Source: Candidatus Latescibacterota bacterium
Lineage (GTDB): Bacteria; Latescibacterota; UBA2968; GCA-2709665
Length of the DNA stretch: 64,000 bases
NCBI GenBank assembly: GCA_965208835.1
Contig: OZ242358.1
Span: forward strand, 1,152,001 to 1,216,000
Direction of reading: 5' to 3'
The notes beneath the pieces are model-generated. The model had not been told where the DNA came from and did no database searches. It saw nothing but the letters and a program-made list of their open reading frames with translations. The stretch's first letter is position 1, and every line of letters starts with the position of its first letter. The position numbers were made by a program, and so were the translations under genes. This document shows, in pieces, positions 5,613 through 55,779 of the stretch.

Positions 5613-5620
5613 CTGATTTC

Positions 5621-11729: not shown

Positions 11730-11741
11730 CCCAATCCCCCA

Positions 11742-14818: not shown

Positions 14819-14899
14819 GACATCCATATCAGTGTCCGGTCCCGAGAATATCCGACTATTCTCCCGCCCAGTTATCCGGTCTCGCTGAAACGCGGTCAT

Positions 14900-14978: not shown

Positions 14979-15011
14979 GGGGGCGGCTCTGCGTATCCGG
15001 CGCGCAACGGA

Positions 15012-15395
15012 CTATTGTTGCGGCTTTCTGGCGACCACGTCGATTTCCACCAGGATTTCCGGCAGGACGGACTGCACCGTGGTCCTGGCCGGCCGGACAC
15101 CCGTAAAGAACTCCGAATACACCCCATTGAAGGCGGCGAAATCGCCGATATCCGCCAGGTGGCACGTCGACTTGACCACGTCTTCCATGGTGCAACCGGC
15201 CTCGCGCAGGACCTTCCGGATATGCTCCAGCGTCGTGCGCGTCTGTGTCTCTATGTCATCCCCGATCACCTCGCCCGTGGCCAGATCCAGCGACGCATGC
15301 CCGCTCACGTAGACCCAGCCATCCGCTTCCACCGCCGCCGAATACGCCCCGGTATCCACCTGTTTGTCGGGGTGTTTGATCTCCCGTTTTCCCAT
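15012..15395 (-). CDS. RidA/YjgF/YER057c family enamine/imine deaminase
   Basis: GAYSAAV, VYVSGH, FNGVYSEFF, RPARTTV, LVEIDVVA. Confidence 0.92.
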   Translation of the reverse strand: MGKREIKHPDKQVDTGAYSAAVEADGWVYVSGHASLDLATGEVIGDDIETQTRTTLEHIRKVLREAGCTMEDVVKSTCHLADIGDFAAFNGVYSEFFTGVRPARTTVQSVLPEILVEIDVVARKPQQ

Positions 15396-15415
15396 GGTTC
15401 CGCCTCCCCTGGTAG

Positions 15416-15446
15416 AGTATCCCTTGATTGTATTGACGCGTCAATA
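15416..15446 (-). promoter_or_regulatory. Putative sigma70 promoter of the RidA gene with a 16-bp palindrome over the -35
   Basis: Minus strand TTGACG-N17-GATACT; perfect palindrome TATTGACGCGTCAATA at 15431-15446. Confidence 0.55.
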
Positions 15447-15469
15447 TAGCGAATTCCCATGTATCTATC

Positions 15470-15636
15470 CAGCCGGATCTGCGTATCGGAATATTGCCCC
15501 GATGCGCCTTGCGTTTCGCCGACGAGGGCTTTATCTTTCCAGAATCTGCGGTGTCCGGAAGGACTCCTTCGCGTCTTGCGACTTCCGGGCGCCTTGCGAG
15601 CCGGGCGAAGGCCGCTGGGAATTTTAAAACAGCTTC
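15470..15636. mobile_element. Degenerate or chimeric MITE related to family A (one intact end)
   Basis: Ends in CCGCTGGGAATTTTAAAACAGCTTC (family A end, inverted) followed by TGA. Contains two CTGCG..GCGCCTTG hairpin cores and 21 nt identical to 51880-51900. Left boundary uncertain. Confidence 0.6.
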
Positions 15637-15652
15637 TGAGGAGAAACGCCAC

Positions 15653-38860: not shown

Positions 38861-39051
38861 CCTTGATTCGTAAGTCTTCGTGGACGTTAATTCGAATATG
38901 TGGATGTAAATAAAGGCGATTAGAAGGCGGATTACCAGGATACACCAGGTCACTGGACGTGAAGGAAAAAGACGTCCTTCTTTACGTCGACAACGCCCCG
39001 TTTCGGAGGGTTTTATCGCGTCGCCGCGTTGCTGTTTTTTTCGGATTGAGG
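38861..39051 (+). mobile_element. Repeat element family D, copy 3 (191 bp)
   Basis: CCTTGATTC...GGATTGAGG, flanks TTAA/TCAA; ends 6 nt before ATG 39058. Confidence 0.8.
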
Positions 39052-39057
39052 TCAAGT

Positions 39058-40485
39058 ATGGATAGACCGGCGTTACATGCAGGCGCGGCACGGCGGGTGA
39101 TCACACCGCCGGTGGGCGTGTCGATGTCGGGGTGGAACCCGCGGGCTTCGGGGAATATCAGGTCGCGGTACGTGCGGGACGACCTCTACGCGAAGGCGCT
39201 GGTGCTGTCCGCCGGTGAACGGGCGTGGGCCCTGGTTGCCGTGGATCTGTCCGGAGTGGATGCGGTTGCGACGGAGGAGATCCGTCACGGCGCTGCGGAG
39301 CGGACCGGACTGAGTCCCGACACGATCATGGTCTGTGCGACGCACACCCATTCGGGACCGGCTTTCTGCCCCGTGGCCACCGCGTACAGCCCTGAAGATA
39401 TGGCCCGCCTGACAATAAGGGGCGACGGATCGGCGCCTGCCGCGATGGGCGAGTTAACGACGGTATCGTCGTCTGCCAGCTGGGTGGGCGAGACGGACGC
39501 GGATTGGAAATCGCGGTTTGTCGCGCAGGCCGTGGAGGCGGTGGAGGAGGCGCACGGCGCGCGGCGTCCGGCTTCGGTGGGGTTCGGTGAGGCCCGGGTT
39601 GCCGGCGTGGCCAGTTCGAGGCGCGTGCTGATGTCCGACGGAAGTTGGGGAGACCCGAGGCGTGACCCCGTCGAGGGCGTCCGCGTGGTTTCGCGCACGA
39701 ATATCGACCCGCTGGTGCGAGTATTCGCGGTGAGAGAGAAGGGGACGGAAGCGCCGCTGGCGGCCGTGATCAATTACGGTACCCATCCGTGGATTTTCTG
39801 CGGATCGGGGATTTCCGCCGAGATCGCGGGCGCGGCGTCCGACCGGGTGGCAAAGACGTTGGGACGGGACGGGGGCGAACCGCCGGTTGTTCTGTATACG
39901 TCCGGCCCCGAGGGCGACGCGACGCCAATTTGGAATGTCGATATCGACGCGGTATGGAAGACCCGACCCGGTGAGGACACCGAAGCAAGTCTCGCAAGAA
40001 GGGAGCGCGGATTCGACCGTGAACTGGCGCGCCTGGGCGGTCGTGTGGCGGACGGGGCGCTGACGGCCGTCCGCGGGATCGTTGGCTGGGACGGGGCCCC
40101 GGAACTCCGGGCCCGCCGGAAGGAGGTCGCACTGCCATTTAAAGAGGGCTACCGTCACGTGGATGACGTCATTCTGGCCGACTGGCAGCGGGACGCGCCT
40201 GAATGTCATCACCTTACAGAAGTGCAGGCGCTCCGGGTCGGCGAAGGGATCTTTCTGGGGCTCCCGGGAGAACCGTTTGTGTCCCTCGGCACGGAAATCC
40301 GGGCTCGATCCGGATCCCGCCGGATGCTGATCGCCGCGCTCGCGAACGAGTTCGGCGCCGTCAGCTACATCGCCGAAAGAGAAGCCTTCGAACAGGGAGG
40401 GTACGAGACCGCGTTCACTCCGTTGGGGCCGGGGAGTGGCGAAGCGCTGGTGGACGGCGCAGTCTCGTTGTTGAACGCGGCGTGA
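39058..40485 (+). CDS. Neutral/alkaline ceramidase-like amidohydrolase
   Basis: AGAARRVITPPVG, DDLYAKALVL, CATHTHSGP, NYGTHP, LPGEPF, GGYE. Confidence 0.8.
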   Translation: MDRPALHAGAARRVITPPVGVSMSGWNPRASGNIRSRYVRDDLYAKALVLSAGERAWALVAVDLSGVDAVATEEIRHGAAERTGLSPDTIMVCATHTHSGPAFCPVATAYSPEDMARLTIRGDGSAPAAMGELTTVSSSASWVGETDADWKSRFVAQAVEAVEEAHGARRPASVGFGEARVAGVASSRRVLMSDGSWGDPRRDPVEGVRVVSRTNIDPLVRVFAVREKGTEAPLAAVINYGTHPWIFCGSGISAEIAGAASDRVAKTLGRDGGEPPVVLYTSGPEGDATPIWNVDIDAVWKTRPGEDTEASLARRERGFDRELARLGGRVADGALTAVRGIVGWDGAPELRARRKEVALPFKEGYRHVDDVILADWQRDAPECHHLTEVQALRVGEGIFLGLPGEPFVSLGTEIRARSGSRRMLIAALANEFGAVSYIAEREAFEQGGYETAFTPLGPGSGEALVDGAVSLLNAA

Positions 40486-40748: not shown

Positions 40749-41322
40749 ATACGTGTTCAATTGCCTTGCGTCGAAAGCCATCCTGAGTTCGCCCTCGGTC
40801 CGCCAGCGTTCGGACGGTGATCAGGGCAGCCGCCGTGATGCGTGAAAGTTGCGACTGTTCGAATGGCGGCGGCTAAGGCCGTTGGCCTGCGTCCGTGGCA
40901 GTCAGGGATGATCACGTCTGGCGTACTGCCCGGTTCAAATCGACACAAAACGCTAAATTTCATCAAAAAATCATCATATAGATGCTCGAATTCAATGATA
41001 GTTCAACGATTTGTCGTTATCTTAAGAATGCCGGGGCACGAAAAGATCGAATCGCGACTTATGAGAAAAAAAGAATTCCTGAAGCGCATTGCACGTATAC
41101 CGCCTCCACGAATGTCGGCTGTTGTTCTCCGCTGCAGGCACACAAATCAACCGGAGTGCGTAACGGAAGGATGTTCAAAGACCGCGTCTTCAATTGGCAT
41201 CACCGGTAGACTACAATTAAGTGAAGGTTCGATCCGACGCTAGAGTACGAGATCTCTGAAGGGGGAAAACCATCCGTAGTCACCTTCGTGAACCCGCAGA
41301 TATCGAAAGGAGAACCGTTATA

Positions 41323-43176
41323 ATGAGATTTCGAACACCGCACGCTTCGGCAACCATGATTGCCGTTGCCGGCCTGCTCGTGCTGGCCTGCGTCTGTACC
41401 AATGCGGCTCCCGCCCTCGCAGCGTGTCCGCTTCCTCCCGGCGTTACGCCTCCTGATAACCCCGGTGTGACGGCGCGACAGGTCGTAGACGGCAGCGCGA
41501 GCCTGGAGGAATTCGCGCTGGCCGCGAGAGATTTCTACAGGAGCGAGTCCCGGGGCCAAGCGACACTTGAACGAGCGGCATACCTCGGATGTCTCACCAG
41601 GCAGGACGATGGAGTCTGGCGTTCCGGTTCCACGTATATCGTGAGCCTGACGCCCGACGGAAGGGTGTTCATTCACGCTAAGGAGATGGCATTATCGGGC
41701 AGGTTGCTTAACCCCTTGGTTTATGGAGCGATCCTTTCTGGCTTGGGCGTATCCTCAGCCGATCTGGCCAACATGGCCTCACCGGACCCTGCTACCGCCG
41801 CCCGGGCATTTGGAGCTGTGATGGGCGTGTTGATGCAAGAGCCGGACGGCCCATTCGATGCGACCACACCTGTTCCTGGCCTGCGACCCGGCATACCAGG
41901 CGCCTCAGGCCATGCAAGCGTCTACTTCTCACTCAATTTCAAGAGCCCGATCGTGATACTCGCCGGTTTCGATCTCAATGAAACTCACGTGACTGAAGAA
42001 GACATCGATTTCGGCGACCCGTCCGTTACCGCCGAGGACGTGGTGGACCGCGGGACTTTGAAGGCCTTCGTCACGGAGGCGATGAATTACTTTCGCGCAG
42101 CCTACGAATCTGGAGGAATAAGTGCTATCTCGAAGGTCAGGACAGCCTTTCGGGATCCGAATGGGCCCTGGAGACACGGTTCGGTGTATCTCTACATCCT
42201 GGATCGCACCAGCAACACAATTCTGCTTCACGGCGCGTTTCCTAATAGATTCGAGCTACAGCCTCTGGTAGCGACTGTTCGCGATGTCGTGAGCGGACAT
42301 CTCGTTCTGCCGCAGGTAATCGAAGCGGCGGCCGGCAGCAGGGAAGGCGGCTTCGTGGAGTATTACTTTGACGACCCCAATGACGAAACCGACAGAGCCG
42401 ACATCCCGAAGGTGGGATACGCACGCGAGTTCACCGGTGAAATCCAACGGCCGGACGGAAGCGTTGTCCCAACTCACTATGTTATTGGGTCAGGTTTCTA
42501 CGGACGCGCTGCCGATGCTGCGACCGGTCCCGGCACGGTCGTGGAGGCCGCGGTGCTGGGCAACGCCGTCGAGGGGCTGGACGTGGCGTTTTCCCGCGCT
42601 ATTGCCGGTCGCCAGTCCGACTACGCCTGGAGTGCCGTCACCGATGCTGCCGGCCTTTTCACCCTGACGATCACCAGCAAGCATGGCGTGAGCGGTTACT
42701 ATCGTGCCCGGGCCACCAAACCCGACGGCGAGGTCGTGGGCCGCTGGAGCAGCATTCCCCTTAATGTCGATCAACGGCAGGTGTTGGAACTGACGTTGGG
42801 CGGCGGCGCTCGAGTTGTGCGGGTCCAGCCGCTGGCGGCATCCAGTCCTGAGGCAGCAGCCAAACCGGCGTTCTCGGCCGAGGCCGTGCCGGAGGCCAGC
42901 GGTCTGTCGCCCAATTCACCCAACCCGTTCAACAGCGCCACGCTGATCACGTACCATTTGTCGAGCCCGGGGCCGGTGACGCTGGTGATCTTCAACGTGC
43001 TGGGTCAGCCCGTAAGGACGCTGGTGGACGAGACCCGCGGGGCGGGCACGTATCATGTCAGGTGGGACGCGCGCGACGACGGCGGCGGCGGCGCGTTGCT
43101 GTCGACCGGGGTGTATATCGCCCGCCTGAACTATCCCGGCGGTGTATCGACGCAACGGCTTCTCTACCTCAAGTAA
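41323..43176 (+). CDS. Secreted twin Cache-like domain protein with T9SS/FlgD-type C-terminal domain, array copy 1
   Basis: Signal peptide; CPLPPG; two repeats (VTAxxV.....L..F...W..GS.Y...L....H); second repeat GPWRHGSVYLYILD...HGAFP...EGGFVEYYFDDP...KVGYAR...IGSGFY is sCache_2-like; C-terminus PNSPNPFNSAT...NVLGQPVRTLVD...WDARDD..STGVY..RL. Confidence 0.85.
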   Translation: MRFRTPHASATMIAVAGLLVLACVCTNAAPALAACPLPPGVTPPDNPGVTARQVVDGSASLEEFALAARDFYRSESRGQATLERAAYLGCLTRQDDGVWRSGSTYIVSLTPDGRVFIHAKEMALSGRLLNPLVYGAILSGLGVSSADLANMASPDPATAARAFGAVMGVLMQEPDGPFDATTPVPGLRPGIPGASGHASVYFSLNFKSPIVILAGFDLNETHVTEEDIDFGDPSVTAEDVVDRGTLKAFVTEAMNYFRAAYESGGISAISKVRTAFRDPNGPWRHGSVYLYILDRTSNTILLHGAFPNRFELQPLVATVRDVVSGHLVLPQVIEAAAGSREGGFVEYYFDDPNDETDRADIPKVGYAREFTGEIQRPDGSVVPTHYVIGSGFYGRAADAATGPGTVVEAAVLGNAVEGLDVAFSRAIAGRQSDYAWSAVTDAAGLFTLTITSKHGVSGYYRARATKPDGEVVGRWSSIPLNVDQRQVLELTLGGGARVVRVQPLAASSPEAAAKPAFSAEAVPEASGLSPNSPNPFNSATLITYHLSSPGPVTLVIFNVLGQPVRTLVDETRGAGTYHVRWDARDDGGGGALLSTGVYIARLNYPGGVSTQRLLYLK

Positions 43177-43270
43177 CGCGAGAGCAAATTTAAAACTGCT
43201 TCTCAGAAAGAGGACAACCGTCCCACGTCACCCTGGTGAACCCGTTTTTCCTGGAAGGAGAATCGCTGAG

Positions 43271-45118
43271 ATGAAGATTCGAACATTGTTCACGTCGGCA
43301 TCCATGATTCCTGTTGTCGGGCTGCTCGCGCTGGCCAGCGTGCTTTCCACCGCACACCATGCAGAGGCGCAGGATCCTTGCCCGCTTCCTCCCGGTGTGA
43401 CTGCCCCGCCGGACCCGGCTGTGACGGCGCAACAGGTGGAAGAAGGCAGCGCCAGCCTGACCGAATTCGGACTGTCCACGAGAGACGCGTTCAGGAATCG
43501 CAGCCATGCGGAAGCGGTAACGAGCTTCGGGCAAATATCCTACTTCGGATGTCTCGTCAGGCGGGAGAACGGGCCGTGGCGCTCCGGTTCCACTTACGTC
43601 GTGATGTTGACGCCCAACGGCAGGGTGTTACTTCACTCGAAGGAAATGGCATTATCGGGCGGGCTGCTCAATCCCGCCATTTACGGAGCAATCCTCGCTT
43701 CGTTGGGCGTGTCCCTGTCGGATCTTGCCAATCTGGCGTCCCCGGATCCTGCTACCGCCGCCCAGGCGTTCGGCGCGGTCATGGCAGTTTTGTCGCAGGA
43801 ACCGGACGGCGTATTCGATGCGACCATCTCGATTCCGGGACGAACGCCAGGCATTCCGGGCGCCTCCGGCCATGCCAGCGCCTATGTCTCGGGCAGTGTA
43901 CGGCAGCCGTTCATCCTGCTCACCGGATTCGATCTCCAACGAATTCACCTGGCGCAGGAAGAGATCGACTACGGAGACCCGGCCGTTACGGCCATGGACG
44001 TGATGGACCGCGAATCCCTGAAGGCTTTCGTCAACGAAGCAGGACGGTACTGTATCGGACTCCAGGGGAGAGACGATATTGACAGAGCCAAGATTGCTCT
44101 GCGGGATCCCAACGGGCCCTGGAGACACGGTTCGGTGTACCTCTACGTCCTGGACCTTGTTTCGAACATCATCCTGATTCACGGCGCGTTTCCGGACAGA
44201 TTCGAGCTTAGACCCCTGACACCGACCGTCAAGGACGTCGTTACCGGAGAGTTCGTTCTGCCGCAGGTCCTCGAAGCAGCGAGGAGCAACCCGGAAGGCG
44301 GCTTCGTAGAGTATTACTTCGACGATCCCAATGACGACTCCGACAGCGCGGATATCCCAAAGGTCGGCTACGCCCGACAGTTCACAACTGAACTCGATAT
44401 TGGCGGACGGGTCATACCTCTCAATTTCATCATCGGATCGGGTTTTTATGGGCGTGCGGCCGATGTCGTGACGGGTCCCAGTACGGTCGTGGAGGCCACG
44501 GTGCTGGGTGATGCTGTGGAGGGGCTGGACGTTGAATTTTCCCGCGCTATCGCCGGTCGCCGGCCCGACTACGCCTGGAGTACCGTCACCGATGCTGCCG
44601 GCCTTCTAACGTTGACAATCTCCAGCCCGGATGGTGTGAGCGGTTACTACCGGGCCCGTGCCACGAACGCCGATGGCGACGTTATGGGCCGGTGGAGCAG
44701 CATTCCGCTCAATGTCAATCAACGGCAGGTTCTGGAATTGACACTGGGCGGCGGTGCGAGGGTCGTTCGTGTGCAACAGCTGGCTACAGACGCGCCGGTG
44801 GCTGCCGCCAAGCCTTCGTTCGCGGCAGAGGCCGTGCCGGTGGCCAGCGGACTTTCGCCAAATTCGCCGAACCCGTTCAACAGCGCCACGCTGATCACGT
44901 ACCACCTGGCCAGCCCGGGTCCGGCAAAGCTGGTGATCTACAATGTGCTGGGCCAGCCCGTACGGACGCTGGTGGATGAGGCCGGTGGGGCGGGCACCTA
45001 TCATGTGAGGTGGGACGCGCGCGACGACGGCGGCGCGTTGCTGTCGACGGGGGTGTATATCGCACGGCTGAGCTATCCCGGTGGGGTGCATACACAGCGA
45101 CTGCTGTACCTGAAATAG
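43271..45118 (+). CDS. Secreted twin Cache-like protein, array copy 2
   Basis: Paralog of 41323-43176; start MKIRTLFTSAS after GGAG RBS. Confidence 0.85.
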   Translation: MKIRTLFTSASMIPVVGLLALASVLSTAHHAEAQDPCPLPPGVTAPPDPAVTAQQVEEGSASLTEFGLSTRDAFRNRSHAEAVTSFGQISYFGCLVRRENGPWRSGSTYVVMLTPNGRVLLHSKEMALSGGLLNPAIYGAILASLGVSLSDLANLASPDPATAAQAFGAVMAVLSQEPDGVFDATISIPGRTPGIPGASGHASAYVSGSVRQPFILLTGFDLQRIHLAQEEIDYGDPAVTAMDVMDRESLKAFVNEAGRYCIGLQGRDDIDRAKIALRDPNGPWRHGSVYLYVLDLVSNIILIHGAFPDRFELRPLTPTVKDVVTGEFVLPQVLEAARSNPEGGFVEYYFDDPNDDSDSADIPKVGYARQFTTELDIGGRVIPLNFIIGSGFYGRAADVVTGPSTVVEATVLGDAVEGLDVEFSRAIAGRRPDYAWSTVTDAAGLLTLTISSPDGVSGYYRARATNADGDVMGRWSSIPLNVNQRQVLELTLGGGARVVRVQQLATDAPVAAAKPSFAAEAVPVASGLSPNSPNPFNSATLITYHLASPGPAKLVIYNVLGQPVRTLVDEAGGAGTYHVRWDARDDGGALLSTGVYIARLSYPGGVHTQRLLYLK

Positions 45119-45151
45119 CGTCGAACGGTTGGATAGATTGCCTTATCCCGG

Positions 45152-45218
45152 AGAACCCGTTTGGAATTGCCCCATTCAGCCTTTAGTTCGAGGCGTGCGG
45201 GGATTTCAGACGGGTTCT
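45152..45218 (+). terminator. Conserved ~66-nt 3' hairpin of array unit (after copy 2)
   Basis: AGAACCCGTTTGGAA...TTTCAGACGGGTTCT plus T-run; homologous hairpins after copies 3-6. Confidence 0.7.
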
Positions 45219-45423
45219 TTTTTCGTGGCGGACACTCACTGAAAAAGCCTGATAACCAACAGGACCTGCTTGACCACGGTTTCCTTTGCGTGCGCTGAAC
45301 ACGGATGCTGTCGTGCGACCGCATTGCGAATTTCCAGATTGGGGTGCCGGATCCAGGAACTTCCGGCGGTCAGTTTGGCAACATCGGTACAATTCAGGAA
45401 GTATCGTAGACGGTATTTTTCGA

Positions 45424-45452
45424 TTGCATGACGGATGGAATGGTCTTAACAT
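45424..45452 (+). promoter_or_regulatory. Conserved sigma70 promoter of array copy 3
   Basis: TTGCAT-N17-TAACAT; the same motif occurs at equivalent positions before copies 4, 5 and 6. Confidence 0.75.
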
Positions 45453-45558
45453 GCGCGTCTGCAAGATTCGGTCCGTAGCGACAGTCTCATTTCTCAGAGC
45501 GAGGACAACCAGCCGCATTCACGCTAGAGAGCTTGTCTTTACGTGAGGGAGAACCGTC

Positions 45559-47403
45559 ATGACGAAAGTTCGAACACTGTTCACTTCGGCATCCATTATT
45601 CCTGTTGTCAGCCTGTTGGTACTGGCCGCCGTCTCTGCCCAGGCGCCTCCCGCCCTGGCATATTGTCCACCCCCACCCGGCGTGACTACCCCCGAGGAAC
45701 CGAGCGTGACGGCGCAGCAGGTGGAAGACGGAAGCGCAAGCCTGAAGGACTTCGCGCTGGCCTCGAGGGAACGATTTGTTATGCAGATCCAGACGGCTGA
45801 GAATCTGGGACAAGTGGTATACTATGGATGTCTCTTCCGGCAAGAGGGGAGCTTTTGGCATTCCGGTTCCACCTACCTCGTGATTCTGAGGGCCGATGGC
45901 AGTATTCTGATTCACGCGAAGAACATGGCATTGGCGAGCAGACGACTCAACCCCCTTGTCTATGCAGAGATCCTTTCTTCGTTGGGATTACCCTCAACCG
46001 TTCTGGGCAACCTGGCATCTCCCGATTCTGCTGTTGCCGCCCAGGCTAGTGCCGATGTCTTTGATATGTTGTCGCAAGGACCGGATGCCGCATTCGATGC
46101 GACCACCCCTATACCAGGCCTGCGACCCGGCATACCGGGTGCCTCCGGCTATGCCGCCGCATATTGGTCGGACTTCTTTAGAGGCCCGCTTGTGATGGTA
46201 GCCGGTTTCGAACTCGATGATACTCACCTGATTGAAGAAGAGATCGATCACATTACACCGGCCGTTTCCGCCAGGGACGTGGTGGATCGAGAAACCCTGA
46301 AGGCCTTCGTCACGGAGGCCGGGGAGTACTGTCTCGAACTTAGGAAAACCGGCAATTTCCCCGGTGGGATAGCCAGGATCGCCCTGCGGGATCCGAACGG
46401 GCCCTGGAGACACGGTTCCGTGTACCTCTATGTCTTGGATACGACCAGCAACATAATCCAGATACACGCTGCGTTTCCGAACAGATACGAGCTTCGACCT
46501 CTGATAGCCACCGTCCGGGACGCGGTTACCGGAAAACTCATACTTCCGCAGGTCATCGAAGCGGCGAAGAGTGACCCGGAGGGCGGCTTCGTGGAGTATT
46601 ACTTTGACGATCCCAATGACGACACCGACAGTGCCGATATCCCCAAGGTGGGATACGCACGCGAGTTCAAGACGAAAACCGAGTTAGGTGGAAGGGTAGT
46701 CCCATACAACTTCATTATCGGGTCGGGTTTTTATGGGCGCGCGCCCGAAGTCGCGACGGGTCCCAGAACGGTCGTGGAGGCCACGGTGCTGGGCGATGCG
46801 GTGGAAGGGCTGGACGTCGAGTTTTCCCGCGCCATCGCCGGCCGCGTTTCCAACTACGCGTGGAGTGCCGTCACCGATGCTGCAGGCCTTCTGTCGCTGA
46901 CCATCTCCGGCGCGGATGGCGTGAGCGGTTACTATCGAGCCCGCGCCACGAACGTGGATGGTGAGGTCGTCGGTCAGTGGAGCAGCATTCCTCTGAACGA
47001 AGGCCACCGACAGACCCTGGAACTAACGCTGGGCGGGGGCGCGAGGGTCGTACGGGTCACGTCGCTGGATGCGGCAGAGCCGGTGGCTGCCGCCAAGCCG
47101 GTTTTCGAAGCTGAGACTGTGCCGGAAGCCAGCGGTCTTTCACCTAATTCGCCCAATCCATTCAACAGCGCCACCGTGATCACCTACCACCTGTCCAGCG
47201 CGGGCCCGGTGCAACTGGTGATCTACAATGTGCTGGGTCAGCCCGTACGGACGCTCATGGACGAGTCCAGCGCGGCGGGCACTTATAAGGTCAGGTGGGA
47301 CGCACGTGACGAGTTTGGCGTCTCTCTGTCGACGGGAGTCTATATCGCACGCCTGAGCTATCCCGGTGGTGCGCAGACTCAGCGGCTGCTGTACCTCAAA
47401 TAG
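45559..47403 (+). CDS. Secreted twin Cache-like protein, array copy 3
   Basis: Intact paralog, 614 aa, same domain order. Confidence 0.85.
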   Translation: MTKVRTLFTSASIIPVVSLLVLAAVSAQAPPALAYCPPPPGVTTPEEPSVTAQQVEDGSASLKDFALASRERFVMQIQTAENLGQVVYYGCLFRQEGSFWHSGSTYLVILRADGSILIHAKNMALASRRLNPLVYAEILSSLGLPSTVLGNLASPDSAVAAQASADVFDMLSQGPDAAFDATTPIPGLRPGIPGASGYAAAYWSDFFRGPLVMVAGFELDDTHLIEEEIDHITPAVSARDVVDRETLKAFVTEAGEYCLELRKTGNFPGGIARIALRDPNGPWRHGSVYLYVLDTTSNIIQIHAAFPNRYELRPLIATVRDAVTGKLILPQVIEAAKSDPEGGFVEYYFDDPNDDTDSADIPKVGYAREFKTKTELGGRVVPYNFIIGSGFYGRAPEVATGPRTVVEATVLGDAVEGLDVEFSRAIAGRVSNYAWSAVTDAAGLLSLTISGADGVSGYYRARATNVDGEVVGQWSSIPLNEGHRQTLELTLGGGARVVRVTSLDAAEPVAAAKPVFEAETVPEASGLSPNSPNPFNSATVITYHLSSAGPVQLVIYNVLGQPVRTLMDESSAAGTYKVRWDARDEFGVSLSTGVYIARLSYPGGAQTQRLLYLK

Positions 47404-47435
47404 CGCCAGAAGGTCAGGCGGGAAACCCTCTCCTT

Positions 47436-47501
47436 AGAACCCGTCCGGAAACACCCGATAGGCCTTGATTTCAAGGCCATAGGGGTTCTCAGACGGGTTC
47501 T
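47436..47501 (+). terminator. Conserved 3' hairpin (after copy 3)
   Basis: AGAACCCGTCCGGAAA...GGCCTTGA-TT-TCAAGGCC...AGACGGGTTCT. Confidence 0.65.
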
Positions 47502-47629
47502 ATTCGAATCAACCGAAGACCTGCTCCGGTCCAGAATACGACATAAGTAACAGGCAATCAACACGTTAAAGAAATCGTGGCCCGACGAGAAGGCAATAAT
47601 AACAAGGCGATCGTCGGCGGTTTTTTTAT

Positions 47630-47658
47630 TTGCATGCCGGGCAGAATTCCTTTAACAT
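47630..47658 (+). promoter_or_regulatory. Conserved sigma70 promoter of array copy 4
   Basis: TTGCAT-N17-TAACAT. Confidence 0.75.
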
Positions 47659-47763
47659 GCCAACTTGGGCGCACGGTCCGAAGCGTTTACCCGATATCTC
47701 AAAAAGAGGACAACCAGTAGTTGCCACGTCAGTGAGCGATTTTTCTCGAGAGGGAGATCCGTT

Positions 47764-49572
47764 ATGAAGAAAGCTCGAACACCGTTAATATCGGCATCCA
47801 TAATTCCTGTTGTCAGCCTCTTGGCGCTCGTCGCCGTCTTTGCCAACGCGGGTTCCTCCGTTGCTCAGGATCGGGGAGAATGCGTACTCCCTGAAGGCGT
47901 GACCCCTCCGGCGGACCCAAGCGTGACCGCGCAACAGGTGGAAGACGGAAGCGCTACCTTGAAAGAATTCGGGTTGGAAGCAAGAAATCGATTCAGTCAA
48001 GGGGCAGGTTCTCGTGAACTGCAACTGTACGTCGGTTGCGTCCTGCGGCAAGAGGGGAGCCATTTGAACTCCGGTTCCACATATCTTGTGCAATTGACGC
48101 CTGATGGAAGGGTGTTTATTCACGCGAAAAATATGGCGCTGTCGGGAAGGTTGCTCAATCGCCTGATTTATGGAACTATTCTTCGAGCATTGGAAATCGA
48201 TTTGGCTGGATTGCAGGACGATCCTGCCGCGTTAACGGCTGCCTTCATTGAGGCTGCAGGCAGGGATGGCGGCGAGTTCAACATGCCTGCTATCCCAGGG
48301 GCTTCAGGCTATGCCGCTGTCTACTTTTCGAGAAATTTCAGACTCCCTATTGTGTTGCTTGCCGGATTCGACCTCAACGAGTCCCACCTGGTCGAAGAGG
48401 AAATCGACTATGGTATTCCCGCCGTTACTGCAAGTGAAGTGGTGGACAGGTAAACTCTAAAAGCCTTTGTTACCCAGGCAGGGGAGGCTTTTCTCAATCA
48501 GCAGAAGGGAGGCGACCTGTCCGCGACCTCGAAGGCCAGAGTGGCCTTGAGAGACCCGAATGGGCCCTGGAGACACGGTTCCGTATACCTCTATGTCCTG
48601 GATCTAACAAGCAACATCATCCTGTTCCACGGCGCGTTTCCTGACCTGTACGAACTGCGGCCTCTGATAGCGACCGTCCGGGACGTGGTTACCGGAGAGC
48701 TTGTTTTGCCGCAGGTCATCGAGGCGGCGAAAAGCAGCCCGGATGGCGGCTTCGTGGAGTATTACTTTGACGATCCCACTGACGACACGGACAGCGCAGA
48801 TATCCCCAAAGTGGGTTATGCCCGTCAGTTTACCGGTCAACGCGAGAGAGAAGACGGGACTGTACTTCCTATAAATTTCATCGTCGGGTCAGGATTTTAC
48901 GGACGCGCGCCCGATGTTGTCGCAACGGGTCCCAGTACGGTCGTTGAGGCCACGGTACTGGGGGACGCGGTGGAGGGACTGGACGTCGAGTTTTCCCGCG
49001 CCATCGCCGGACGTCAGTCCGAGTACGCGTGGAGCGCCGTCACCGATGCTGCCGGCATTCTGTCGCTGACCATCTCCAGTGCGGATGGGGTGAGCGGTTA
49101 CTATCGTGCCCGGGCCACCAATGCCGATGGCGAGGTCGTGGGCCGGTGGAGCAGTATACCTCTGACCGAAGGCCGCCGCCAGGCCCTGGAACTGACGCTG
49201 GGCGGGGGCGCGAAGGTCGTACGGGTCGCGTCGCTGTCTGCGGCGGAGCTGGTGGCTGCCGCCAAGCCGGTTTTCGAAGCTGAGACTGTGCCGGAAGCCA
49301 GCGGTCTTTCACCTAATTCGCCCAATCCATTCAACAGCGCCACCGTGATCGCCTACCACCTGTCCAGCGAGGGTCCGGTGCAACTGGTGATCTATAATGT
49401 GCTGGGTCAGCCCGTACGGACGCTGGTGGATGAGACCCGCGGGGCGGGCAGGTATCAAGTCAAGTGGGACGCGCGCGACGACGGTGGCGCGTTGCTGTCA
49501 ACCGGAGTGTATATTGCCCGCCTGAGCTATCCTGGCGGCGTGCAGACGCAACGGCTGCTCTACCTGAAATAG
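47764..49572 (+). pseudogene. Array copy 4, interrupted by an in-frame TAA
   Basis: ORFs 47665-48453 and 48541-49572 are in the same frame; TAA at 48451-48453 replaces the GAA(Glu) of VVDRE seen in paralogs. Confidence 0.85.
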
Positions 49573-49604
49573 CGCCAGTCATCGAAGCAGAACGTGATAG
49601 TTTG

Positions 49605-49671
49605 AGAACCCGTTTGGAAACGCCCCATATAGCCTTGAGTACGAGGCTTGCGGTGTTTACGGACGGGTTCT
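49605..49671 (+). terminator. Conserved 3' hairpin (after copy 4)
   Basis: AGAACCCGTTTGGAAAC...GTTTACGGACGGGTTCT. Confidence 0.65.
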
Positions 49672-49805
49672 TCCTTTTGGGGTGTGAAGGCGGACGATCG
49701 TACCGAAAACCTTTAGTTGCGGCAACGGGTCAAGGGCCGCCAGGCGGTCATGCCGTCCCGATCGTGGACAAAGACGCAAAGACGCAAGGGATCGTGACAT
49801 TTTCG

Positions 49806-49834
49806 TTGCATAAAGAGTCGAACCCACTTAATTT
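49806..49834 (+). promoter_or_regulatory. Conserved sigma70 promoter of array copy 5
   Basis: TTGCAT-N17-TAATTT. Confidence 0.7.
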
Positions 49835-49938
49835 ACACATTCGTGCGATTCGGTCCCAGGCGACAGCCTCATATCACAGAGAGGGTAGGCAGCCGCAGAT
49901 ACGCTACTGAGCCCGGCTCTCCAGGAGGGAGAACCGTC

Positions 49939-51789
49939 ATGAAGGAAATTCGAACATCGTCCACTTCGGCATCCATAATTCCTGTTGTCGGCCTGCTGAT
50001 GCTGGCCGGCGTCTTTTTCGATCCGGGTCCCGCCGCGGCACAGGGGCTGGGAGATTGCGTACTCCCTGAAGGCGCGAATCCACCCACTGAACCGCATACG
50101 ACGGCGCAGGACGTTGAGAACGGCAGCGCAACCCTGAAGGACTTCGCGCTGGCCGCGAGAGATCAGTTCAAGGTGGGATCTCCAACTCCGGAAGAAGCGT
50201 TCTACTTCGGATGTCTCGTCAGGCAGGAGGGGAGCCATTGGCGTTCCGGTTCCACCTACATCGTGTCAATGCTGGCCGACGGAAGGGTGTTCGTTCACGC
50301 AAAGGATATGGCACTGTCGGGCAGGCTGCTCAACCCTGTAATATACGGAACGATCCTCGCCGCGCTGGGCGTATCTCCAGGCGATCTGGCCAATTTGGCT
50401 TCTCCGGATCCCGCTGTCGCCGCCCAGGCTTTCGGCGCCGTCATGGGCACATTGATGCAGGAACCGGATGGCGCATTCGATGCGACCGCCCCGATTCCAG
50501 GTCTGTCGCCCGGTATACCGGGCGCCTCCGGCTATGCCGCCGTATATTTATCGGGCAATTTCGCGCTTCCGGTTGTAATGCTCGTCGGATTTGACATCAA
50601 TGAAACTCACTTGGCTAAAGAAGACATCGATTACGGCGCCCCTGCCGTCGCCGCCGAGGACGTGGTGGACCGGGAATCCCTGAAGGCCTTCGTCACGCAA
50701 GCGGGAGAATTCATCCTCGAACTCCAGAAGACCGGCGATCTGGCCGCTTCCTCGAAACTCAGGATCGCCCTGCGGGACGCGGACGGACCCTGGAGACACG
50801 GTTCCGTTTACCTTTACGTCCTGGACCTTACCAGCAACATCATCCTGTTCCACGGCGCGTTTCCGGACAGATTCGAGCTGCGGCCTCTTGTCGCGACCGT
50901 CAAGGACGCGGTTACCGGTCAGCTCGTTCTGCCGCAGGTCATCGAGGCGGCGAAGAGCAGCCCGGAAGGCGGCTTCGTGGAGTATTATTTCGACGATCCC
51001 ACCGACGACACGGACAGTGCCGATATTCCCAAGGTGGGCTACGCCCGCGAGTACCACGGGGAATTTGACACAGGCCAACGCATACTCAGACTCAACTTCA
51101 TTGTCGGTTCAGGATTCTACGGGCGCCCGGCCGATGTCGGGACAGGTCCCAGCACGGTCGTGGATGCTACGGTGCTGGGCGACGCGGTGGAGGGGCTGGA
51201 CGTAGACTTTTCTCGCGCCATCGCCGGGCGCCAGTCCGAATACGCGTGGAGTGCGGTCACCGATGCTGCCGGCCTGTTCACCCTGACGATCTCGGGTGAA
51301 AATGACGTGACCGGTTACTACCGGGCCCGGGCCACGAACGCCGACGGAGAGGTCGTGGCCCGGTGGAGCAGCATACCTCTGAATGAGGGCAGGCGCCAGG
51401 TTCTCGAACTGACGCTGGGCGGAGGTGCGAGGGTCGTACGGGTCCGAGAGCTGACTACCGCCGAGCCGGTGGCTGCTGCCAAACCGGTTTTCGAAGCCGA
51501 GACCGTGCCGGAAGCCAGTGGTCTGTCGCCGAATTCGCCCAACCCGTTCAACAGCGCCACCGTGATCACTTACCGTATTTCCAGCGCGGGTCCCGTGAAA
51601 CTGGTGATCTACAATGTCCTGGGTCAGCCTGTACGGACGCTGGTGGATGAGTCCCGCGGGGCGGGCAGCTATCAGGTCAGGTGGGATGCGAAAGACGACG
51701 GTGGCGCGACGCTGTCGACCGGGGTGTATATCGCCCACCTGAGCTATCCCGGCGGTGCGCAGAACCAGCGACTGCTGTATCTCAAATAA
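49939..51789 (+). CDS. Secreted twin Cache-like protein, array copy 5
   Basis: Intact paralog; start MKEIRTSSTSAS after GGAG RBS. Confidence 0.85.
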   Translation: MKEIRTSSTSASIIPVVGLLMLAGVFFDPGPAAAQGLGDCVLPEGANPPTEPHTTAQDVENGSATLKDFALAARDQFKVGSPTPEEAFYFGCLVRQEGSHWRSGSTYIVSMLADGRVFVHAKDMALSGRLLNPVIYGTILAALGVSPGDLANLASPDPAVAAQAFGAVMGTLMQEPDGAFDATAPIPGLSPGIPGASGYAAVYLSGNFALPVVMLVGFDINETHLAKEDIDYGAPAVAAEDVVDRESLKAFVTQAGEFILELQKTGDLAASSKLRIALRDADGPWRHGSVYLYVLDLTSNIILFHGAFPDRFELRPLVATVKDAVTGQLVLPQVIEAAKSSPEGGFVEYYFDDPTDDTDSADIPKVGYAREYHGEFDTGQRILRLNFIVGSGFYGRPADVGTGPSTVVDATVLGDAVEGLDVDFSRAIAGRQSEYAWSAVTDAAGLFTLTISGENDVTGYYRARATNADGEVVARWSSIPLNEGRRQVLELTLGGGARVVRVRELTTAEPVAAAKPVFEAETVPEASGLSPNSPNPFNSATVITYRISSAGPVKLVIYNVLGQPVRTLVDESRGAGSYQVRWDAKDDGGATLSTGVYIAHLSYPGGAQNQRLLYLK

Positions 51790-51943
51790 TGTCCTGTCCC
51801 AAAAATATCTCACCATTCGGTCGCCGATTCATCCCGTCTCGCTGCGTTGCCTTCGCTCGCCGACCTTACGCAGGTCGGTGGCGCCTTGCGAGCCGGGCGA
51901 CTCGACGGCCGAATTCAGGCAACCTATTTCTGGGACAGAACAG
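51789..51943. mobile_element. MITE family C (155 bp) inserted in the stop codon of copy 5
   Basis: TIRs TGTCCTGTCCCAAAAATA / TATTTCTGGGACAGAACA, flanked by TA duplication; paralogs show the empty site AAA-TA-GCGCCA. Confidence 0.85.
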
Positions 51944-51978
51944 TAGCGCCACACGGTAAGGCAGGAAGGGTTTTTCTG

Positions 51979-52044
51979 AGAACCCGTCCGGAAACACCCG
52001 AATAGCGTTGAACACGAGGGTTGCGGGTTCTTCGGGCGGGTTCT
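51979..52044 (+). terminator. Conserved 3' hairpin (after copy 5)
   Basis: AGAACCCGTCCGGA...TTCGGGCGGGTTCT. Confidence 0.65.
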
Positions 52045-52169
52045 CTTCGATTCAACCGAATACCTCCGTCGGCTCAGGACACTAGGTAGGACGTATTCAA
52101 CACGCAGAAGAAAGCCCCGCCCGAATTGAAGGCATTGATTGCAAACTGATCGCAGAAAGTCTTTTTAAT

Positions 52170-52198
52170 TTGCATAACCGGTGAATTTTAATTAATAT
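52170..52198 (+). promoter_or_regulatory. Conserved sigma70 promoter of array copy 6
   Basis: TTGCAT-N17-TAATAT. Confidence 0.75.
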
Positions 52199-52304
52199 CC
52201 CCGTTCGTATGATCGGTCCCGGGCGGTGGGCCGATGTTTCAGAGAGAAGAAAATCAGCCGTGGTCGCCGTTGCGGCCTTGTCTTTAACGGGAGGGAGAAC
52301 TGAT

Positions 52305-54169
52305 ATGATAAAGTTTCGAACACTGTTCGCGCAGGCAAACGTGAATCCGGTTGTCGGTCTGCTCGTTCTGGCCGTCGTCTTGTCATTCGTACGTCCGGCC
52401 GTGGCAGTTTGTCCGCTTCCCCCGGGCGTGACGGCCCCCGACGACCCCGCTGTGACCGCGCAGCAGGTGGTAGACGGCAGCGCCACCCTCAAGGAGTTTT
52501 CTCTGGCAGTAAGAGAGCGGTCCAGAGAATACGCCAAGGGGGCCGCGGCCACGGAACAAGCCGTATATATCGGATGCATCATAAGGCTGGACGATGGGAT
52601 CTGGCGTTCGGGTTCCACCTACATCGTGAGCCTGACGCCTGACGGCAGGATATACATTCACGCGAAGGACATGTCGTTGACGGGCAGGTTGCTAAACCCG
52701 GTGGTTTATGGAGCGATCCTTTCAGCGCTGGGCGTATCCCTATCTGATCTGGCGAATCTGGCGTCTCCCGATCCTGCGACTGCCGCACAGGCTTTCGGCG
52801 CTGTCATGGGCACATTGGCGCAGGAACCTGACGGCGCGTTCGATGCGACCGGTCCTGTTCCGGGTCTATCGCCAGGTATACCGGGCGCTTCGGGCCATGC
52901 CGCCGTCTATATCGAGCCCAATGTAGGGGGGGCTCCGATTGTAATGCTCATGGGTTTCGATCTCAATGAATCTCACCTGGTCCCATTAGCGATGAAGTCA
53001 TCGATTACGGCGACCCGGCCGTCACTGCCAGGGACGTGGTGGATCGCGAATCCCTGAAGGCCTTTGTTACCCAGGCTGGAAATTACTTTCTTGAACTTCA
53101 GAATTCCGGGGATTTCGCCGCTATTGCGAAAGCCAGGATCGCCTTGCGGGATCCGAACGGCCCGTGGAGACACGGTTCCGTGTACCTCTACGTTCTGGAT
53201 CTTGTCAGCAACATCATCATATTTCACGCGGCGTTCCCTGACAGATACGAGTATCGTCCTCTGATACCGACCGTCACCGACGCCGTGACAGGCGAGTTCA
53301 TCCTGCCGCAGGTCATCGAGGCGGCGAAGGGCAGCCCTGATGGCGGCTTCGTGGAGTATTACTTCGACGATCCCACCGACGACACCGACAGCGCCGATAT
53401 CCCCAAGGTGGGATACGCCCGTGAGTTTGCCGCTGAAATTCGGCGGCCGGACGGAAGCACAATCCCGGCCGACTTCATCGTCGGTTCGGGCTTCTACGGG
53501 CGCGCGGGCGAGGTTGCCACGACGGATCCCAGCACGGTCGTGGAGGCCACCGTGCAGGGTGACGCGGTAGAGGGGTTGGACGTGGCATTTTCCCGCGCCA
53601 TTGCCGGGCGCGGGTCCGATTATGCCTGGAGCGCCGTCACCGATCCTGCCGGCCTGTTCTCCCTGACCATCTCCAGCGCGGATGGCGTGAGTGGTTACTT
53701 TCGGGCCCGGGCCACCAACGCCGATGGCGAGGTCGTGGGCCGTTGGAGCAGCATACCCCTGAATGAAGGCCGCCGCCAGGTTCTGGAACTGACGTTGGGC
53801 GGCAACGCACGGGTCGTAGGTGTCGAAGCCCTGGCCTCATCCAGGTCTGAGGCCGCCGCCAAGCCGGCGTTTGCGGTCGAGGCCGTGCCGGAAGCCAGCG
53901 GTCTGGCGCCCAATTCGCCGAACCCATTCAACAGCGCCACGCTGATCACCTACCATCTGTCCGGCGCGGGTCCTGTGAAGCTGGTGATCTACAATGTGTT
54001 GGGCCAGCCCGTACGGACGCTTGTGGATGAGTCCCGTGCGGCGGGCACGTATAAGGTCAAATGGGATGCGCGCGACGAGGGTGGCGCGTTACTGTCGACA
54101 GGTGTGTATATCGCCCATCTGAGCTATCCCGGCGGTGTGCAGTCGCAACGGCTGCTGTACCTCAAGTAG
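52305..54169 (+). pseudogene. Array copy 6, frameshifted in the interdomain linker
   Basis: Frame breaks at CTGGTCCCATTAGC (~52982-52984); adding one base restores HLVPISDEVIDYGDPAVTARDVVDRE, continuous with ORF 53036-54169. Confidence 0.8.
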
Positions 54170-54200: not shown

Positions 54201-54266
54201 AGAACCCGTTCGGAATCACCCCGTGAGCCATGCGCCCTGGGCTTGCACGGATTTCGAACGGGTTCT
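54201..54266 (+). terminator. Conserved 3' hairpin (after copy 6)
   Basis: AGAACCCGTTCGGAATC...GATTTCGAACGGGTTCT plus T-run. Confidence 0.7.
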
Positions 54267-54675: not shown

Positions 54676-55779
54676 TTGGGCGAACCCGTGGTATTGCTTC
54701 GTGAAGGACCGTTGAAATTCCACGTGTTCAGGGGAAGCTCCGTCGAGATGGGCCGGGCTCATGGTTCTCTTGACCCGGAGTTTCTCCGATCGCGGCTGGA
54801 CGAATGGCTGACGTGGCCTCACGATTTCGATCACCCGTATTTTCGGAAGAACATGGCGTTCATGCGGCGCGAGTTTCCGGATTTCATCGAACGCATGGAA
54901 GCTTACGGCGCGGCGGCGGGTATCGACAACTTCGATCACACCTACTATCTGCACATGGTCGACACCGGCCGAGAGCAAGAAGCATGTTCCGCGTTCGGAA
55001 TCCTGCTGAGCGACGATGGGCCGGCCCTGCTGCGAACCTACGACCCTTCTGATTCCACCGGGACGAGCTACTTTGTCAGGGATCGCTTCGTGGCGGCGTT
55101 TCCGGATTGCCGCCCGCACGGATACCTCGGCATGGGCGGGCATCACTTCTGTGTCGTACATACCTCAGTCAACGACGCCGGCCTGCTTACGGGATGGGCT
55201 TCGGGGGCGCCGAAATTCCATTGGCCCGACAACCCGGAACACGTCAATCTCTTTCAGATCACCGGACTCGTGCCACAGCATTGCGGTGACTGCGAGGACG
55301 TGAGGCGGTTTCTCAACGAATACCGGATTTCCGGGCTGAAAGGGCTGACCGGCACGTCCGTGGACGCCAGGGGTAACATACTCGGTATCGAACTGGAATC
55401 TGAGAATATCGCATTTCGCGAACCCGAAAATGACATGGTACTGGAGGTGAACCACTGGCAGCATCCCGACCTCCAGCGCCTGGCACGGAAGAGAAAACCG
55501 GAATTCTGGACGAGCCCCTATTACTACAATTCACAGAACCGCGTGCAGTACGTGGAATACCACCGGGACAGGTTCCTGCGGATGTCCACACTCGAAGAGC
55601 TGATTGACTTTACGTTCGACGTGCACGCTCCCGGTCGAATCCTGCAGATGCCGGACGCCAACATTGCCAACTGGATGACCTCGCATGCGATCTATATGAC
55701 TGCCGCCGACCGGAGAATGCGGGTACACCCGTATCCGCTTGATAAAGACAGATACACCGAAGTCGCATATCTCGGTTGA
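54676..55779 (+). CDS. Peptidase C45 family Ntn hydrolase
   Basis: GSSVEMGRAHG, QEACSAFG nucleophile Cys, VNDAGL, VNHW; TTG start after GAGGAG; similar to 34677-35750. Confidence 0.75.
   Translation: MGEPVVLLREGPLKFHVFRGSSVEMGRAHGSLDPEFLRSRLDEWLTWPHDFDHPYFRKNMAFMRREFPDFIERMEAYGAAAGIDNFDHTYYLHMVDTGREQEACSAFGILLSDDGPALLRTYDPSDSTGTSYFVRDRFVAAFPDCRPHGYLGMGGHHFCVVHTSVNDAGLLTGWASGAPKFHWPDNPEHVNLFQITGLVPQHCGDCEDVRRFLNEYRISGLKGLTGTSVDARGNILGIELESENIAFREPENDMVLEVNHWQHPDLQRLARKRKPEFWTSPYYYNSQNRVQYVEYHRDRFLRMSTLEELIDFTFDVHAPGRILQMPDANIANWMTSHAIYMTAADRRMRVHPYPLDKDRYTEVAYLG

Follow-up and report, generated by a model that had tools for sequence, protein, structure and literature searches.

Segments resembling hypervariable loops are old, conserved paralog differences in a tandem array of predicted surface proteins with duplicated sCache_2-type modules from a Candidatus Latescibacterota genome

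A 64,000-nt stretch of contig OZ242358.1 from a Candidatus Latescibacterota bacterium (hereafter the window; positions are counted from its first letter) carries on its + strand, at 41323-54169, six head-to-tail paralogous genes of ~615 codons each, designated c1 to c6, of which four are intact and two disrupted. By sequence, the N-terminal 360 residues of the encoded proteins are two tandem sCache_2-type modules. A sequence-only reading of this array had noted four segments in which the six copies differ on a conserved framework and had likened them to the complementarity-determining regions (CDRs) of antibodies, hypervariable and subject to diversifying selection. The framework and the discrete segments are present as described, but the segments diverged mostly on old branches following gene duplication and have been maintained ever since. 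They cannot be called hypervariable, and the CDR-like pattern is ordinary, old, conserved paralog divergence. In the explanation that we prefer, and to which we would give an even chance of being correct, the segments are paralog-specific elements of ancient origin, conserved today, that determine what each copy recognizes beyond a shared acidic group.

All of the segment strings quoted in the earlier reading are found as written. When column identity in the six-copy alignment is smoothed over 9 columns, runs below 0.4 occur at alignment columns 76-92 (segment i), 211-218 (ii), 269-281 (iii) and 383-392 (iv), with mean column identities of 0.16, 0.33, 0.39 and 0.33, respectively, as compared with 0.70 for the N-domain framework. 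Other runs below this threshold are located at the end of the signal peptide (columns 26-39), in the linker (517-518) and at columns 231-235, the last being an effect of an insert and the frameshift in c6. The segments account for 67 columns and contain only 2 of the 138 invariant N-domain columns. The clustering is well above chance, with 50 smoothing windows below 0.4, where column shuffling gave 7.4 on average and at most 29, and none of 5000 shuffles reached 50. The claim that variation, including indels, is concentrated in the four segments needs amending as regards indels. Only 10 of the 30 gapped N-domain columns are inside the segments, the remainder being mostly c4 deletions in a helical insert of module 1, and this insert (columns ~140-195) forms a fifth, moderately variable zone.

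Segments i and iii, and ii and iv, had been placed at roughly equivalent positions of two repeats, and profile-profile alignment of the two halves of the N-domain bears this out. The local alignment (97.0% probability, E 1.1e-10, 71 columns) sets segment i opposite iii, and the global alignment (95.6%, 150 columns) sets segment ii opposite iv. Segments i and iii would then correspond to the end of helix 1, the loop and the start of helix 2 in the N-terminal helix-loop-helix of each module, and segments ii and iv to the hairpin joining its last two strands. The last hairpin of module 2, segment iv, is 6 residues longer than in 4/5 matched solved domains whose alignment reaches the hairpin. As the homologous elements lie outside the pocket in solved sCache_2 relatives, all four segments are most likely positioned outside the canonical pocket.

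In all six copies, the N-terminus has a basic start, a hydrophobic stretch and A/S-x-A directly before an invariant Cys, which, as judged by eye from the alignment, reads as a Sec signal peptide. At the C-terminus, a type IX secretion system (T9SS) sorting domain of type A was detected in each of the three copies tested, with TIGR04183 scores of 31.5-35.8 bits (cut-off 23), and FlgD_ig reaches its gathering score in five of the six. There is no second hydrophobic segment and no output domain in the window proteins, and the PF03797 autotransporter beta-domain is absent from all six. The surface exposure assumed in the earlier reading is, as judged from this architecture, almost certainly correct, with the proteins predicted to be exported and probably attached to the cell surface by T9SS. 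No T9SS component was found among the scanned open reading frames (ORFs) of the 64-kb window. For the C-terminal 212 residues, the sole matches were weak ones to PorU and a diabody.

The best Pfam match of the N-domain is dCache_2 (PF08269), confined to module 2, scoring 30.7 bits in c3, or 33.0 bits when module 2 of c3 is taken by itself (cut-off 26.5). The sCache_2 model itself gives 17.3-19.5 bits (cut-off 25). A module 2 profile, built with distant family members added, matches the solved sCache_2 domains 2qhk (1.3e-11), 4exo (5.7e-11), 4k08 (6.2e-10), 5g4y (1.4e-6) and 3ub6 (7.1e-5). Distant members of the family pass the Cache Pfam models strongly (301.7 and 289.5 bits in P0146), and one with seven repeats, P0146, matches the same solved structures directly.

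The pocket of module 2 is identical in all copies. Residues Y289, H303, Y347 and K363 of c3 align with Tyr90, His103, Tyr143 and Lys156 of PscD, which, in the accessible text of PMC5062169, hydrogen-bond the carboxylate of propionate, and with Tyr94, His107, Tyr147 and Lys160 of Adeh_3718, which hold acetate according to the accessible part of PMC3831638. In the same alignments, Y291 and F349 match the two stacking tryptophans, and L329 the hydrophobic wall, described in these sources. Each residue of the Tyr-His-Tyr-Lys tetrad is present in 217 of 217 aligned family domains, in module 2 only. The motifs reported earlier as invariant are confirmed, as are the two cysteines (C36 in 217/217 and C91 in 216/217 relatives) and, with the tetrad aligned to solved sensors and retained throughout the family, these motifs are recognizable as the canonical ligand pocket. 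Module 1 retains the first Tyr (214/217) and the His (213/217) but has a 5-residue gap at the second Tyr and second aromatic, and Gly in place of Lys, and so, in this alignment, has lost three pocket residues. That the small-carboxylate pocket of module 2 is complete and invariant suggests that this module binds a carboxylate, and the type of acidic group bound there is probably common to all copies. Between Tyr347 and Lys363 there is also an invariant acidic loop, DDPxDDxDxAD (c3 46600-46644, with equivalents in the other copies), that is absent from the solved sCache_2 domains aligned here and that may be a metal site or a lid.

Every window copy groups with its orthologs elsewhere in a separate clade (support of 96-100 in the Shimodaira-Hasegawa-like approximate likelihood ratio test, SH-aLRT). 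These orthologs have 80-98% domain identity to the window copies, and the order c1-c2-c3 is retained in one other genome. Over all 23,436 pairs of the 217 domains, segment identity is 0.96 where framework identity is at least 0.95 (73 pairs), 0.89 at framework identities of 0.90-0.95 (327 pairs), 0.78 at 0.85-0.90 (381 pairs) and 0.40 at 0.75-0.80 (4088 pairs). Among close relatives, the segments are thus about as conserved as the framework, and in 255 of 264 within-orthogroup instances a segment has the same length as in the window copy, neither of which fits the description hypervariable.

The ratio of non-synonymous to synonymous substitution rates (dN/dS) is below 1 in every partition. Among the six copies it is 0.46 for the segments and 0.21 for the framework, in 24 window-ortholog pairs 0.20 and 0.18, and in 132 within-orthogroup DNA pairs (80 sequences) 0.30 (0.23-0.38) and 0.19 (0.16-0.21), respectively. 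In the within-orthogroup set, the upper bound is below 1 for every individual segment, and only 3 of the 16 columns in which the proportion of non-synonymous differences exceeds that of synonymous differences (pN>pS) are inside segments. A maximum-likelihood (ML) codon model gave 0.68 for the segments and 0.26 for the framework between orthogroups (29 sequences, one per group). Within groups, the ML omega values for segments and framework were 0.17 and 0.19 for c1, 0.31 and 0.26 for c3, and 0.18 and 0.15 for c4, the c2 group being left out as it had too few DNA rows. Diversifying selection, antibody-like or for evasion of phage or host, had been proposed with dispersed flexible loops and a dN/dS of 1 or less named as grounds against it; as regards dN/dS, such values are what was found.

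By parsimony, the segments change 1.69 times as fast as the framework within groups and 2.82 times as fast between groups (chi-square p 1.4e-7, although columns and branches are not fully independent). Of the 22 group-specific positions, conserved within and different between orthogroups, 12 fall in the 63 scored segment columns. Fourteen of the 22 are between residues 69 and 122 in module 1, and only one (T295) is in the pocket region of module 2. Having diverged after duplication and then come under purifying selection, the segments are best seen as fixed identity marks of each paralog. Of the earlier interpretation, a conserved framework with discrete variable segments at matching places of two repeats is retained; continuing diversification is not.

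The C-terminal halves have a different history, one of concerted evolution within genomes. Identity among the six copies is 78-87% over the beta domain, linker and sorting domain versus an average of 63% for the N-domains, and dS is 0.52-0.63 in the C-terminal half versus 0.97 in the N-domain; the concerted region is 42517-43173 in c1 and the equivalent parts of c2 to c6. In this half, neighbouring copies are often closer to each other than orthologs across genomes are. The c6 protein, for example, is 0.89 identical to its ortholog at locus L018 in the N-domain and 0.66 in the C-terminal half, whereas this ortholog is 0.63-0.67 identical to its own neighbours in the N-domain and 0.87-0.88 in the C-terminal half. 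When locus labels were mapped on trees of the same 53 proteins, the N-domain tree required 32 changes (shuffled mean 29.2) and the C-terminal tree 22, below all 300 shuffles, with all six window tails in one clade. A 100-nt tract in the linker and tail is identical in c3 and c4 (~47080-47180 and ~49250-49350). Homogenization of the N-domain framework within genomes was not found, pS being equal within and between genomes. Homogenized C-terminal halves next to N-domains that are not homogenized are consistent with functional differentiation residing in the N-domain.

Several relatives have mosaic N-domains. P0023 groups with one paralog group to ~column 320 and then with the c3 group, at 0.97 over columns 361-400, which include segment iv, so that through a conversion patch it has the segment iv of a different paralog group. 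In P0066, a c1-like segment iv is combined with a different framework, and P0024 is a further mosaic.

In the preferred explanation, the array would encode exported, probably surface-attached proteins with tandem sCache_2-type modules, in every copy of which the invariant pocket of module 2 would engage a common small acidic group. The segments diverged mainly on the old branches that follow the gene duplications, purifying selection has since kept them in each orthologous lineage, and they would set copy-specific recognition or docking, of an extended ligand, a partner protein or a surface. Different specificities of the copies would follow from the segments. A bolder version, which we consider unlikely, adds that on a Cache scaffold released from signalling, the tips of the helix-loop-helix and hairpin elements in the two modules jointly make up a second recognition surface specific to each paralog, that the array constitutes a set of surface receptors or lectin-like adhesins, each of which would anchor on a common acidic group by its invariant pocket and read a different context with its segments, that the domain has been traded between co-resident phyla onto the export anchor of the recipient (T9SS tail, autotransporter barrel or leucine-rich repeat stalk), and that segments are occasionally reshuffled by gene conversion.

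Several observations weigh against this explanation. With two of the six disrupted, it is doubtful that every copy is indispensable, and no ligand, partner or neighbouring transporter indicates a substrate. The placement of the segments derives from homology and published topology. For the five copies other than c3, the dCache_2 scores of 19.8-23.7 bits are below the gathering cut-off; a whole-protein profile searched against solved structures left the N-domain unmatched, with only a weak FlgD match for the tail, and neither a Pfam family nor a solved structure was matched by module 1 taken by itself. Between paralogs, synonymous sites are near saturation (pS 0.63) and the segment alignments are uncertain; these data are compatible with or without a brief episode of positive selection following duplication. 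In the c6 group, the ML omega is 0.68 for the segments and 0.17 for the framework, so that constraint is not uniform across orthogroups. The group-specific positions in or near segment i include the hydrophobic residues F73, V74, V86, V87, L107 and I109, which may be buried packing contacts rather than a recognition surface.

These last positions are also part of the case for structural drift, in which the segments are tolerant peripheral elements that changed under relaxed constraint shortly after each duplication, with compensating changes in helix-sheet packing and without distinct specificities, the copies being kept for dosage or in the process of being lost. The hydrophobic group-specific positions of segment i are found together with L107 and I109 of the first strand, and drift is also in keeping with dN/dS estimates that are all below 1, with a pocket that is the same in all copies, with the two disrupted copies and with an array composition that varies between species (locus L003 has c1-c2-c3 followed by members of other groups). 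Within orthogroups, however, purifying selection on the segments is clear (0.30, upper bound 0.38) and their lengths are kept, no fewer than six distinct lineages have been retained in several genomes, with ortholog dS reaching ~0.7, and the N-domains escape homogenization although the adjoining C-terminal halves do not. Drift is possible, but on this evidence we doubt that it accounts for the segments.

The pattern of conservation within and difference between groups would also fit an interface. If the helices and hairpins mediated paralog-specific self-association, divergence could prevent mixed oligomers of co-expressed copies. Segments i and iii are in the N-terminal helix-loop-helix, and the N-terminal helices of chemoreceptor sensor domains contribute to dimer contacts. 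We regard this as improbable. Nothing in the present analysis points to oligomerization, and the accessible text of PMC3831638 describes the Adeh_3718 sensor domain as crystallizing without oligomeric contacts.

Continuing diversifying selection, with phage, host or competitors as opponents in an arms race and an exposed surface for recognition as its target, could draw on segment omega values that are generally above those of the framework (0.68 both between orthogroups and in the c6 group), on short conversion patches such as that in P0023 that can move a segment between paralogs, and on the spread of the domain across phyla. It is very unlikely in view of the identity of the segments among close relatives (0.96 and 0.89 in the two highest framework classes), the dN/dS values, the small share of pN>pS columns and the fixed segment lengths. 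Programmed variation, by a diversity-generating retroelement (DGR) or from silent donor cassettes with the disrupted copies as donors, is scarcely credible: the tandem arrangement with two disrupted copies, the 100-nt tract shared by c3 and c4 and the one conversion patch over segment iv in a relative would be in its favour, but there is no reverse transcriptase among the 33 window ORFs of at least 200 aa, the window has just six family members, the shared tract is outside the segments in the linker and C-terminal domain (CTD), the c4 and c6 orthologs are intact elsewhere and the segments are stable across species.

The paralog-specific recognition elements that we favour would be carried by a domain that, by sequence, belongs with the sCache_2-type sensors. 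It resembles the solved sCache_2 chemoreceptor domains (PscD-SD, 5G4Y/5G4Z; Adeh_3718, 4K08; Vibrio parahaemolyticus, 2QHK/4EXO; TlpB, 3UB6) in giving significant profile matches, in the order of a helix-loop-helix followed by a beta-sheet, and in the carboxylate Tyr, His, Tyr and Lys with two flanking aromatics and a hydrophobic wall residue. It differs in having neither transmembrane helices nor a signalling output domain, in having two tandem modules of which the first lacks three of the pocket residues, in the longer last hairpin (by 6 residues) and the DDPxDDxDxAD loop, and in being fused to a beta domain and a T9SS sorting domain. The layout of a duplicated sCache_2 is shared with dCache_2, which is described as the product of such a duplication in the accessible part of PMC4822843, but only one of the six window copies passes the dCache_2 gathering score and that match covers module 2 alone. 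As set out in the same accessible text, Cache domains are the main extracellular sensor modules of bacterial signalling proteins and are known solely from proteins with output signalling domains, between two transmembrane helices. The window proteins do not have this architecture, a sensor between two membrane helices in a signalling protein, and so are outside the Cache domain as defined in that way.

The window proteins resemble T9SS type A cargo in having a C-terminal sorting domain that exceeds the cut-off of TIGR04183. Cargo of this type in Porphyromonas loses its CTD by cleavage and becomes attached to anionic lipopolysaccharide on the cell surface (PMC8545088 and PMC9143113, accessible parts). 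They differ from this cargo in that what is predicted to be carried is a Cache-type binding domain. Antigenic-variation families and DGR targets also have tandem paralogs, a framework with variable segments and occasional gene conversion, but here the segments are stable among orthologs, dN/dS is below 1, and there is no reverse transcriptase and no sign of silent cassettes. With type Va autotransporters the likeness is that relatives carry the same N-domain before a PF03797 beta-domain; the window proteins have no beta-barrel domain.

Searches of the literature, with subscription journals and supplements outside their scope, found no pairing of a Cache domain with type IX secretion, and only unrelated co-occurrence of Cache domains with autotransporters. 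In the accessible text of the sources on Cache domains with adhesins or secreted proteins, no Cache domain is described as exported cargo, and a term search for Cache and T9SS in a publication on sponge-associated Latescibacterota genomes gave no mention of either. What appears to be new here is a tandem sCache_2 unit with an intact carboxylate pocket as predicted exported cargo, without an output domain and in multi-copy arrays, and the reuse of the same unit in other phyla, where it is the passenger of autotransporters. Should the copies differ in what they bind, they would be a natural set of binders with a fixed anchor site and exchangeable specificity elements and, if so, would also provide a handle on what these uncultured bacteria recognize at their surface. 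For the CDR-like proposal the useful outcome is a negative one, an arrangement that looks like CDRs but behaves as old, conserved paralog divergence.

The family has at least 1425 proteins among the 8000 candidates scored, and a separate search gave 423 clusters at 50% identity. Species-representative genomes gave 248 matches, from which 52 loci were kept, and at least 21 of these have two or more tandem copies. In 8 of 13 relatives scanned, the N-domain is an autotransporter passenger before PF03797. These forms (loci L036, L038, L041, L043, L047 and L049) are 56-60% identical and come from metagenome-assembled genomes (MAGs) labelled Alphaproteobacteria, Binatia, Thermodesulfobacteriota and Deltaproteobacteria; a passenger role in other phyla fits a function outside the cell. 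In a MAG labelled Opitutales (L037), two adjacent genes (9959-12910 and 13441-16413) join c3-like and c6-like N-domains at 84-85% identity, and the first, the only one scanned, has leucine-rich repeats. This spread reflects either transfer between phyla or binning error. P0146 (2142 aa) has its seven sCache_2 modules before an autotransporter domain, and proteins of 1443-1886 aa with two or three complete N-domains are encoded at L036 (9929-15337), L045 (9716-15373) and L048 (9818-14146).

Within the window array, pairwise identity of the six copies is 67-73% for protein and 71-77% for DNA, and no family member beyond the six, including extra partial copies, was found in the window. The coordinates of the genes, segments and flanking signals are listed in Table 1. 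At the c6 frameshift, the sequence is GGTCCC, and intact orthologs in other genomes have GGTTCCC with one T more, consistent with a 1-nt deletion; the c4 orthologs are uninterrupted at L025, L026 and L027. The c4 and c6 lesions are either real pseudogenes or assembly errors and, for alignment purposes only, were read through with X at the break. At L012 (15280-15450), a paralog has an independent 1-nt insertion ~ten codons from the site of the c6 frameshift, and both of these lesions fall between the two modules.

Table 1. Coordinates in the window of the paralogous genes, their variable segments and the flanking signals
Feature	Position	Strand	Comment
c1	41323..43176	+	intact, 617 aa; signal peptide, Cache-like module 1, sCache_2-like module 2 (both by sequence), beta domain, T9SS CTD
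c1 segment i	41533..41580	+	putative helix-loop-helix, module 1
c1 segment ii	41926..41949	+	putative last hairpin, module 1
c1 segment iii	42073..42141	+	putative helix-loop-helix, module 2
c1 segment iv	42427..42477	+	putative extended last hairpin, module 2
c2	43271..45118	+	intact, 615 aa counted from ATG 43271; listed ORF begins at GTG 43142
c2 segment i	43487..43540	+	
c2 segment ii	43886..43909	+	
c2 segment iii	44033..44092	+	
c2 segment iv	44378..44425	+	
c3	45559..47403	+	intact, 614 aa; sole copy with a dCache_2 match over the Pfam gathering score
c3 segment i	45772..45819	+	
c3 segment ii	46165..46188	+	
c3 segment iii	46312..46377	+	
c3 module 2 pocket region	46405..46662	+	W283-R368; Y289, H303, Y347, K363, invariant in all six copies
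c3 segment iv	46663..46710	+	
c4	47764..49572	+	disrupted: in-frame TAA 48451-48453; Glu or Gly there in other copies
c4 segment i	47989..48027	+	
c4 segment ii	48325..48348	+	
c4 segment iii	48472..48540	+	
c4 segment iv	48826..48876	+	
c5	49939..51789	+	intact, 616 aa
c5 segment i	50164..50202	+	
c5 segment ii	50548..50571	+	
c5 segment iii	50695..50763	+	
c5 segment iv	51049..51096	+	
c6	52305..54169	+	disrupted: frameshift near 52983
c6 segment i	52518..52565	+	
c6 segment ii	52911..52937	+	
c6 segment iii	53069..53137	+	
c6 segment iv	53423..53473	+	
5' leaders of c1-c6	41203-41325, 43151-43273, 45439-45561, 47644-47766, 49819-49941, 52185-52307	+	conserved across c1-c6
Hairpin after c2	45153..45217	+	terminator-like; outer stem GAACCCGT...ACGGGTTC
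Hairpin after c3	47437..47500	+	c2-type; outer stem GAACCCGT...ACGGGTTC
Hairpin after c4	49606..49670	+	c2-type; outer stem GAACCCGT...ACGGGTTC
Hairpin after c5	51978..52045	+	similar kind; one arm differs, so missed by exact pattern search
Hairpin after c6	54202..54265	+	c2-type; outer stem GAACCCGT...ACGGGTTC

A conserved 5' leader of ~120 nt is located upstream of each start in all six copies. It has a GGAGA core that is invariant in the six, a GGGAGGGAGAA-like ribosome-binding stretch common to c3 to c6 and a shared TCGGTCC...CTCAGAAAGAGGACAACC stretch; RNAalifold supported no common fold (-3.2 kcal/mol). The hairpins that follow c2 to c6 are 64-68 nt with a GC-rich inner stem and predicted energies of -40 to -44 kcal/mol (z -3.3 to -6.0). 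The exact hairpin pattern has four matches in the window where none is expected. There is no such hairpin after c1, and a U run follows two of the five. These hairpins are probably terminators that travel with the duplication unit. With its own leader and ribosome site for every copy, and a strong hairpin after c2 to c6, the genes look individually expressed.

Neither a phage nor a defence gene was found near the array (PADLOC, 0 families), and Rfam and tRNA searches of the window gave no matches. A sigma-54 regulator, histidine kinases with Reg_prop sensors and a TonB-dependent receptor (6 loci) recur beside the arrays of other genomes, but this reflects shared synteny among related genomes, and they do not adjoin the window array. 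The neighbouring genes at 15494-17641, 21526-24846, 38959-40485 and 54676-55779 include weak matches to glucuronyl esterase, the heparinase II/III C-terminal domain and neutral ceramidase, as well as a C45-family acyltransferase/hydrolase, and no link between them and the function of the array was established. A ceramidase-like gene also adjoins the arrays at L002, L012, L015 and L027. At 3872-8619, genes for a CHAD-domain protein, a ParA/MinD-like ATPase and polyphosphate kinase 1 are in a row, a polyphosphate-related group that is unrelated to the array.

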